In this document: positions 12,203 to 13,547 of the stretch, in pieces
How the letters are laid out: the number at the start of each line of letters is the position of its first letter
Position numbering within the stretch: the stretch's first letter is position 1
Source of the DNA: Eledone cirrhosa
Lineage: Eukaryota
Reading direction: 5' to 3'
Assembly (NCBI GenBank): GCA_964016885.1
Contig: OZ024743.1
Coordinates: 110,794,001 to 110,858,000 of the forward strand
Length of the DNA stretch: 64,000 nt
Program-made: the position numbers and the translations under genes
Notes under the pieces: generated by a model
Told to the model about the DNA's origin: nothing
Database searches by the model: none
The model's input: the letters and a program-made list of their open reading frames with translations, nothing else

Positions 12203-12717
12203 ACACACACATTCTCACACACACACACAGTCTTATACACACAGGCTCACACACGCATACACACACATACACACACACAATCTCTCAAACACACACACAC
12301 ACACACACACACACACACATATATATATATATATATATATATATATATATATATATATATATATATAAACATATACATATATATATATATATATATATAT
12401 ATATATATATATAAATATATATATATATATAAATATATACATATATATATATATATATATATATATATATAAATATATATATATATATATATATATATAA
12501 ATATATATATATATATATATATATATATATATATATATATATATATATATATATATAAATTGGAATAAATGCTCTGAAATAGCGATATATATGTGAATAT
12601 AGACATAGAATATTCGAAAATATTCTGTATGTTTATAATAAACATTTTGAAGACCTAATCGCTATAGAATAGAATACGTCACGTATTACAATTAGATTCT
12701 CGATAAAAGCAAGGGAA

Positions 12718-12760
12718 GTAATCTACGCGTTTCATTCTTGTTAGAAATCATCAGGACCAC
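12718..12760 (-). ncRNA. Minimal type I hammerhead ribozyme
   Basis: GTGGTC-CTGATGA-TTTC taacaa GAAT-GAAA-CGCG-TA-GATTAC. Stem I GTGGTC/GATTAC, palindromic stem III, GUA cleavage triplet. Confidence 0.85.
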
Positions 12761-13027
12761 ATATCCAGTGCTTTTATCGAGAATGACACAGCTAGAGACT
12801 TATAGAATACATAGCTGTGTACAGGAACTGGTTTGAAAGAGCGGTTGCCGGTCCGGCAGAAATTAGAAATTGGAATAAATGCTCTGAAATAGCGATATAT
12901 ATGTGAATATAGACATAGAATATTCGAAAATATTCTGTATGTTTATAATAAACATTTTGAAGACCTAATCGCTATAGAATAGAATACGTCACGTATTACA
13001 ATTAGATTCTCGATAAAAGCAAGGGAA

Positions 13028-13070
13028 GTAATCTACGCGTTTCATTCTTGTTAGAAATCATCAGGACCAC
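13028..13070 (-). ncRNA. Minimal type I hammerhead ribozyme (second tandem copy)
   Basis: Identical to 12718-12760, 310 bp away. Confidence 0.85.
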
Positions 13071-13221
13071 ATATCCAGTGCTTTTATCGCTATTTCAGAG
13101 CATTTATTCCAATTTCTAATTTCTGCCGGACCGGCAACCGCTCTTTCAAACCAGTTCCTGTACACAGCTAAGTATTCTATAAGTCTCTAGCTGTGTCATT
13201 CTCGATAAAAGCACTGGATAT

Positions 13222-13264
13222 GTGGTCCTGATGATTTCTAACAAGAATGAAACGCGTAGATTAC
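13222..13264 (+). ncRNA. Minimal type I hammerhead ribozyme (inverted copy)
   Basis: GTGGTCCTGATGATTTCTAACAAGAATGAAACGCGTAGATTAC on the + strand. Confidence 0.85.
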
Positions 13265-13547
13265 TTCCCTTGCTTTTATCGAGAATCTAATTGTAATACG
13301 TGACGTATTCTATTCTATAGCGATTAGGTCTTCAAAATGTTTATTATAAACATACAGAATATTTTCGAATATTCTATGTCTATATTCATATATATATATA
13401 TATATTAGGTATAGGATTATCCAAGATGTAGTAATGGTTGATTACTTCACTGGATATGGTTGACGTACGGTGAGAGGTTACTCTACGAGTTATGGAAGAA
13501 TTGGTGAAGAAACTTAGTTCCTGATCCTTCTGTATTCCGGAGTGTAT

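Follow-up and report, generated by a model that had tools for sequence, protein, structure and literature searches.

The repeat that spans positions 12557 to 13397 of the window (the whole 64,000-nt stretch of Eledone cirrhosa DNA analysed here) is probably a young, non-coding retrozyme that was inserted by the enzyme of a Penelope-like element (PLE) through two-sided priming, on an RNA that was usually a one-unit circle and sometimes a multimer. In the mechanism proposed, the PLE enzyme would nick both strands of a (TA)n tract, and each target end would prime reverse transcription on the same RNA, at two adjacent sites 35 nt apart. The template would usually be a one-unit circle that is read for several laps, and at times a multimer, and the two cDNAs would be joined at their 3' ends, presumably by microhomology. 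The circle itself would be made by dimeric hammerhead cleavage and host ligation. A PLE protein is put forward as the inserting enzyme because the combination of a tail and an inverted arm has been described as PLE-specific. The features of the insertion and its surroundings are the following.

12319..12556, no strand: left (TA)n target microsatellite
12557..13089, minus strand: left arm with 1.72 units, read in ribozyme sense; its outer (3') end is unit position 167
12559..12593, minus strand: 35-nt 'tail', unit positions 131-165, the excess of the long end over the short end
12696..12784, minus strand: two halves (12696-12711 and 12769-12784) of a 16-bp inverted repeat that prolongs stem I around the hammerhead
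12718..12760, minus strand: second type I hammerhead in ribozyme sense, its cut predicted between 12724 and 12723
12724..13033, minus strand: predicted 310-nt monomer (unit positions 1-310), bounded by two predicted hammerhead cuts, each placed by its GUA triplet
13028..13070, minus strand: first type I hammerhead in ribozyme sense, its cut predicted between 13034 and 13033
13085..13089, no strand: head-to-head inversion junction, 5-nt overlap
13085..13397, plus strand: right arm, inverted, 1.01 units, 'short' end class
13222..13264, plus strand: third hammerhead, on the inverted arm, its cut predicted between 13258 and 13259
13389..13405, no strand: right (TA)n target microsatellite
13942..18600, plus strand: neighbour outside the element, a 5'-truncated two-armed Hydra-type PLE

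Unit position 1 is defined as the base after the predicted cut that follows GUA, and 'tail' is used in the sense described in PMC8557442 and PMC11167929. On this numbering, the left arm (minus strand) runs from position 255 through one full unit to 167, an outer end of the 'long' class (165-172), and the right arm (plus strand) runs from 137 to 130-139, its outer end being unit position 130 (13388), ambiguous up to 139 (13397) since it runs into TA. Both outer ends of the insertion run into (TA)n, and the two arms differ at two bases. The original prediction had described a 310-nt tandem unit over 12557..13390. The exact 310-nt period stands, with 223 identical bases between 12557-12779 and 12867-13089 at an offset of 310 nt, but the tandem part covers only 12557-13089 (1.72 units), and 13085-13397 is an inverted copy. 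With 34.5% GC and a longest ATG frame of 30 aa, the unit is non-coding. Release of a 310-nt monomer from this very locus, through the sites at 13034/13033 and 12724/12723, would be possible on paper yet is doubtful: a read-through transcript would cross the inverted arm before reaching them and presumably form a 313-bp duplex, and stem III needs a dimer, as described in PMC4209133 and PMC7229834; a known promoter is also lacking. A bacterial promoter scan, with 4 sites against 4.3 expected, is uninformative. Longer arrays would be better candidate sources of the RNA, and the monomer of the window (12724..13033) carries a private change, at 12811.

The window insertion contains three complete hammerheads (minus strand, 13070-13028 and 12760-12718; plus strand, 13222-13264). 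Helix I has 6 bp (two of them G-U), and an internal loop and a 16-bp stem prolong it; the 4 bp of helix II stand above a U-U mismatch at its base, and helix III is a single pair capped by CGCG. The elements that had been listed for this ribozyme (core CUGAUGA..GAAA, CGCG and 6-bp stem I) are all present, as is the GUA triplet. Its designation as an intact minimal type I hammerhead holds for the type and for the completeness of all three copies, but by the definition in PMC4209133 the form is canonical, not minimal. In that source, the canonical form has a helix I of 6 bp, a helix II of 4 bp, a helix III of 1-2 bp and a palindromic loop, and is expected, as the animal type I form, to cut as a dimer; the minimal PLE hammerhead (min-HHR) has no helix III or loop 3, a helix II of 7-8 bp and a short helix I. 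The min-HHR class is ruled out for a unit with a 6-bp helix I plus extension, a 4-bp helix II and a palindromic loop 3. The perfect inverted repeat said to enclose the ribozyme was found, with 16 bp, although the stem is complete for only two of the three hammerheads, and the three further hairpins that had been reported are likewise in place. A strict hammerhead descriptor gives 4 matches in the window, compared with 0 in each of 20 dinucleotide shuffles, and Rfam returns nothing at gathering score within the window, hammerheads included. The fourth descriptor match, at about 4090-4140 (plus strand), is unrelated in sequence.

The description of the unit as highly base-paired agrees with circular folding, in which 57% of the bases are paired and the fold lies below those of shuffled sequences (linear fold, z -3.2; circular, -66.0 kcal/mol, z -4.1, with 0 of 100 shuffles as low). 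The antisense strand folds equally well (-75.9), as inverted repeats do. For the monomer, stem I is predicted with a probability of 0.85-0.99 and stem II with about 0.15, stem III is also disfavoured, and the active hammerhead fold lies 6.7 kcal/mol above the minimum. The hammerhead of the family is weak on paper, judging from these folding models, from its one-pair stem III and from the U-U that many copies have below stem II; in experiments described in a preprint (10.64898/2026.07.22.740005), 8 of 9 dimers of Xenopus retrozymes failed to cleave.

Across the genome of 3.0 Gb, exact 33-nt cores occur 4,568 times with U-U and 3,923 times with A-U under stem II, and 0 times for controls; these 8,491 exact cores are a floor, other core variants being common in the least biased sample. 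Two sets of insertions were taken for closer study: 45 by unit or core similarity (the window insertion, 23 top matches and the rest consecutive on one contig, C1) and 30 by end pattern (the first 30 listed that had not already been taken), which amounts to 75 insertions and 689 units. Units are about 99% alike across insertions, with a median of 8 and a maximum of 34.6 per insertion, array lengths being those given by the assembly. The genome-wide search thus describes a dispersed multimeric family, with 1,051 junctions in which the unit ends at position 165 and is followed by TA, and with the 75 insertions lying on many contigs. In no case among the 75 is the unit the pseudo-LTR or 3' UTR of a coding PLE. 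The PLE ORFs matched near arrays belong to differing families and lie at differing positions, and the reading of the repeat as an autonomous PLE, or as its pseudo-LTR, was rejected, there being no ORF with reverse transcriptase (RT) and GIY-YIG attached to it.

The 310-nt family is likely a non-LTR retrozyme, as the original prediction had proposed: it is non-coding, dispersed, multimeric, provided with type I hammerheads and, in the insertions examined, separate from any coding PLE. Judged from sequence, it displays every feature open to such a test, namely a tandem unit of 150-450 bp, a GC content below 50%, no LTR, primer-binding site or coding capacity, and at least two type I hammerheads in a row. 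The unit has no tRNA head, and a metagenome scan for the core gave 0 matches.

Inverted duplications are a known artefact of long reads. Fold-back chimeras of such reads at TA tracts could in principle have produced two-armed structures of this kind, and no short-read contig of run X1 spans the window locus itself. This explanation has next to no probability, given that the arms differ in length, have changes of their own and stop at two distinct fixed sites, that short-read contigs of run X1, where the unit stands at high depth, hold the unit, the orientation joints and the (TA)n ends of the family, and that PLE families of the same genome have the same layout with tail lengths of their own. 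Contigs of 340 nt that close into a cycle (310 + 30), one in each of runs X3, X5 and X6, were considered as evidence for RNA circles and rejected, because the kind of run is unsettled, because a tandem repeat gives an equal cycle and because traces of the neighbouring PLE ORF occur in these runs at a depth of 2-8. Trace DNA is the explanation for them.

The insertion footprint is what ties the family to PLEs. In the first set, 39 of the 45 insertions are two-armed, every one of them head-to-head, and the other 6 have one arm only, one of which abuts a run of N. Of the two-armed insertions, 37 of 39 have one end near 130 (the alignment extends to 139 through TA) and a second end at 165-172, and none has two ends alike, a pairing with p 1e-11 if independent; the two exceptions, L031 and L249, look interrupted or deleted. 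The second set repeats the pattern, with a short end opposite a long end in 26 of the 26 insertions in which both ends are aligned; one of its members, L329, was counted by hand (stray 23-nt match), the long arm of L333 is only about 20 nt, and three further insertions run beyond the stretch taken. The long end exceeds the short one by 35 nt. Arm junctions mostly overlap by 0-16 nt, with inserts in a few, and (TA)n is found at 65 of 80 outer flanks, a sequence in which target-site duplications are unreadable. As described in PMC8557442, PLE insertions are marked by (TA)n targets, by a truncated copy in inverted orientation and by a tail of 30-40 bp on one end; in vitro, the tail corresponds to the distance between two adjacent RT start sites (PMC11167929). 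An inverted 5'-truncated copy with a one-sided tail, here of 35 nt, is present in 37 of 39 and 26 of 26 insertions. Mobilisation by PLEs, which had been suggested on weaker grounds, is thus supported by the inverted arm, the fixed 35-nt tail and the (TA)n targets, and the layout likely records a PLE enzyme copying one RNA from both sides of a DNA break.

The nature of this RNA can be approached through the variants that the arrays carry. Variants that extend over a whole array agree between its two arms in 46 of 46 tests in the first set and 52 of 52 in the second, private ones included, and unit lengths of 308 and 311 are also common to both arms. The 75 insertions comprise 27 array-wide haplotypes, while 98 single-unit changes stay unhomogenised. 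A new variant would fill a whole array only if one unit were re-read repeatedly, and therefore a circle-like template is proposed; variants fixed in all units of both arms point to a one-unit template read again and again. An alternative is that the repeat is a satellite or a PLE end fragment, inserted as one or two units, then grown and homogenised by unequal crossing-over or gene conversion, with the hammerhead as a relic. Local amplification of PLE ends is favoured in the portions of the preprint 10.64898/2026.07.22.740005 that deal with it, and local duplications are visible here too (variants 7 units apart in L055+56 and 2 apart in L327). Homogenisation, however, must then have reached across the inversion junction in 98 of 98 tests and yet have spared 98 single-unit changes, and the outer ends are exact, the hammerhead pairs covary and no coding PLE is attached. 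This alternative is already largely refuted by the sequences and is very improbable.

A more serious competitor keeps the two-sided PLE insertion but takes the usual template to be a linear multimer that stems from transcription of a pre-existing array and stays uncleaved, so that circles are rare or irrelevant and uniformity is inherited. Several observations speak in its favour. In L045 and L324, a variant is confined to one unit and lies at equal distance from the start site in both arms, and therefore one multimeric RNA was read from both start sites at least twice. Blocks of units change haplotype within the long-end arm of L084+62 (17 of 23 outer units) and of L319 (4 of 6 outer units), which therefore do not come from a single circle. 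In addition, the ribozyme is predicted to be weak, and uncleaved RNA is the main PLE substrate in vitro, where the hammerhead is dispensable, as described in PMC11167929. Nonetheless, the linear multimer leaves the 27 array-wide haplotypes unexplained, as a new mutation would stay in one daughter unit; the in-register single-unit pattern appears in only 2 of about 65 two-armed insertions; most single-unit changes within the span of both arms are unshared (1 listed site is shared); and selection on the hammerhead needs a role for cleavage. As the normal template, the linear multimer is unlikely. Both arms would, as a rule, come from one molecule, most often one-unit in content and sometimes multimeric. 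Part-way along, the haplotypes of L084+L062 and L319 change into the one found in the opposite arm, which would suit a template switch by the RT. Partial variants number 15 as listed, some of them from local duplication.

A one-unit template could also be a self-cleaved linear monomer, with its ends held together by stem I and the 16-bp stem, on which the RT jumps the nick in each lap. The stem I probability of 0.85-0.99 implies that a cut monomer would stay closed, and the same one-unit bottleneck would result. The inner ends of the arms, however, show no excess at the cut (2 of 142 lie within 5 nt of the cleavage site, with 4.6 expected, and no position is avoided), and lap-to-lap indels are absent from it: arms cross the site up to about 25 times, and the alignment rows of the examined insertions contain no sporadic indel at the cleavage junction. 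One-base insertions beside the cut are instead present in every unit of 5 arrays, which is what a covalent template would produce. The nicked monomer is improbable, and a covalently closed circle remains the preferred template.

A fuller version of the circle reading, to which we give somewhat less than an even chance, would see the arrays as records of rolling-circle reverse transcription. A PLE dimer would sit on one ribozyme-made 310-nt circle at two sites separated by 35 nt, and its subunits, each primed from one side of a cut (TA)n tract, would run laps and occasionally switch circles; in a family of such circles, the module that loads the PLE would have been kept while the hammerhead drifted, and some templates would have been A-to-I edited. 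Coleoids are known for heavy A-to-I editing. A>G makes up 7 of the 23 substitutions that extend over whole arrays and 5 of the 98 that are confined to one unit (p 0.002; p 0.02 in the comparison with T>C). The polarity is relative to one reference unit, and the change from A-U to G-U is also favoured by selection for pairing. Editing of the template RNA is thus a weak lead from sequence comparison.

A 76%-similar repeat in L054 and L083 led to older sister families, of about 313-325 nt (6,363 matches of a 15-nt pattern), that share the same two ends and the priming region with the 310-nt family. Sister copies (L083:1630-2463, L103-L132, L214 and L255) have the hammerhead cores CUGAUGA, CUGAGGA and UUGAUAA and mostly one or two units per arm. 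In an alignment of 4 units of the 310-nt family and 15 sister units over the hammerhead and its enclosing stem, 90.9% of the cells pair, compared with 35-50% in slid controls; 18 of 28 pairs change on both sides across the 19 units, and C3-G8 alternates with U3-A8 (10:9) with zero mismatch. The U3-A8 variant is described in PMC4209133. This covariation is support for selection on the hammerhead rather than a probability, as the units represent about four related clades and were picked with a hammerhead-like pattern, by which the conservation of stem III is built in. Within the 310-nt family, the 8 array-wide changes in the 43-nt hammerhead fall on a variable core base or in loop 2, or keep or improve a pair. 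The 11 invariant core bases have zero array-wide changes against 0.8 expected, which is not significant alone.

Regarding the source of the enzyme, the adjacent PLE family had been named as a plausible helper. The neighbouring element has an ORF at 15854-17005 with the Hydra motifs RWR, DKT and CxCX5C, and a hammerhead-like motif of its own near 18414 and 14040. Its family is large, with intact ORFs of 738-748 aa at 93-98% identity; the closest named relative of the protein is from Argonauta hians (38% identity), and Pfam gives no match for this Hydra-type protein. Its two-armed layout is that of the retrozyme, with a tail of about 87 nt, above the 30-40 bp usually quoted. This tail length, its own unrelated hammerhead and the lack of similarity above shuffles speak against the proposed role, and the proximity of retrozyme and PLE reflects their shared (TA)n target. 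Between the two, window positions 13406-13865 hold a further repeat, distinct from both, with a near-perfect palindrome at about 13560-13865; it recurs in L035 and L205 and is probably another two-armed PLE-type stub.

Other PLEs of the genome were compared in the same way. In the Hydra-like families of about 745, 813 and 832 aa, the tails measure about 87, 168 and 164 nt, respectively, and a small GCUC..GAGC hairpin lies 5-8 nt after the long start site; the two further young families (813 and 832 aa; L193-L210) contain hammerhead-like motifs with the core CCGAAGA. None of the three has 3' similarity to the 310-nt unit above shuffles, the best local scores being reached by 41 to 276 of 300 shuffles. 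A short likeness was noticed between two hairpins, the one that follows each start site of the PLEs and the one that follows the short site of the retrozyme. A fourth Hydra-like PLE (L275-L304; L280:1500-1710) has a 68-nt tail and 9,393 matches of a 27-nt hammerhead pattern, many of its copies being tiny two-armed stubs. It matches the 310-nt unit at 26 of 28 bases of the core and stem II, about half of which are obligatory, a likeness that may be due to exchange or convergence. There are at least five Neptune-type families with GIY-YIG ends (L255-L274), one of them with a U3-A8 hammerhead (UUGAAAA); two Neptune-like families, including this one, have tails, read by eye, of about 63 (the U3-A8 family) and 48 nt. 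At 30 + 20 GIY-YIG loci, no similarity was found beyond inserted retrozymes. In this non-exhaustive search of four Hydra-like and several Neptune-like families, no PLE shares the priming region or the 35-nt tail.

Non-LTR retrozymes are known from coral, mussel, axolotl (Rtz331 and Rtz353) and newt (satellite 2), as described in PMC7229834, PMC7761336 and 10.64898/2026.07.22.740005. As far as these descriptions go, the 310-nt family resembles them in its non-coding tandem unit of 150-450 nt with GC below 50% and a canonical type I hammerhead per unit, in its self-paired fold, in its thousands of copies and in the presence of PLEs in the same genome. It also has the one-pair helix III with palindromic tetraloop described for HHR_Amex1 and the U-U under helix II described for HHR_Amex2. 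Head-to-head arms, fixed ends and a tail set it apart from the known families as they are described there. The repeats discussed in PMC7761336 are presented in it as lacking a conserved motif that would point to a helper, whereas the priming region of the 310-nt family is common to its older sister families. Expression, cleavage and circles have been demonstrated for known retrozymes; for the present family, cleavage and circles are predictions from genomic sequence. Among EN+ PLEs (Hydra, Neptune and Poseidon), according to the descriptions in PMC8557442, PMC11167929 and PMC4209133, an inverted 5'-truncated arm, a one-ended tail, (TA)n targets, a hammerhead near the 3' end and two adjacent RT start sites are found as well. 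In contrast to them, the 310-nt element has no ORF, its arms hold as many as about 25 identical units where PLEs have partial tandems, and its tail region has no match in any PLE family examined.

Chlamys derivatives such as MRC1 are a further parallel, being non-coding, multicopy head-to-tail insertions that depend on PLEs (PMC8557442). As described there, elements of the MRC1 type resemble the 3' end of their autonomous partner and are mostly devoid of canonical hammerheads, whereas the hammerhead is conserved in the 310-nt family and no partner was found.

In the twin priming of L1 elements, both target ends prime on one RNA, and a head-to-head inversion joined by microhomology results. The 310-nt family shares the two priming ends on one RNA and the inversion, and differs in that its start sites are fixed, internal and 35 nt apart, that both arms re-read the same sequence and that there is no poly(A). 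Searches of the open-access literature, at the level of main texts, found no description of two-armed tailed retrozyme insertions or of cephalopod retrozymes.

The spread of animal retrozymes by PLEs, with a circular RNA as template, has been proposed and not shown, as set out in PMC7229834, PMC7761336 and 10.64898/2026.07.22.740005. With hundreds of near-identical insertions whose tail and inverted arm are PLE-specific, the 310-nt family adds genomic evidence for the proposed mobilisation; its two start sites can be named to the base, and in-register variants tie both arms to one RNA. It would offer a defined 310-nt substrate for two-sided priming or rolling-circle reverse transcription with purified PLE protein, and the type of template (circle or multimer) becomes readable from genomes alone. 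Even if the circle were absent, the family would still be good evidence for PLE mobilisation of a ribozyme repeat.

Further repeats were noted in the sampled loci and in the rest of the window. Another hammerhead tandem repeat, of about 490 nt and with an internal TA tract, lies at L265:8060-9900. Window positions 49600-64000 and 35700-38600 are occupied by tandem LINE-like elements with a period of about 6 kb and diverged copies upstream, and their endonuclease, RT and zinc-binding domains are found at 54669-58089.
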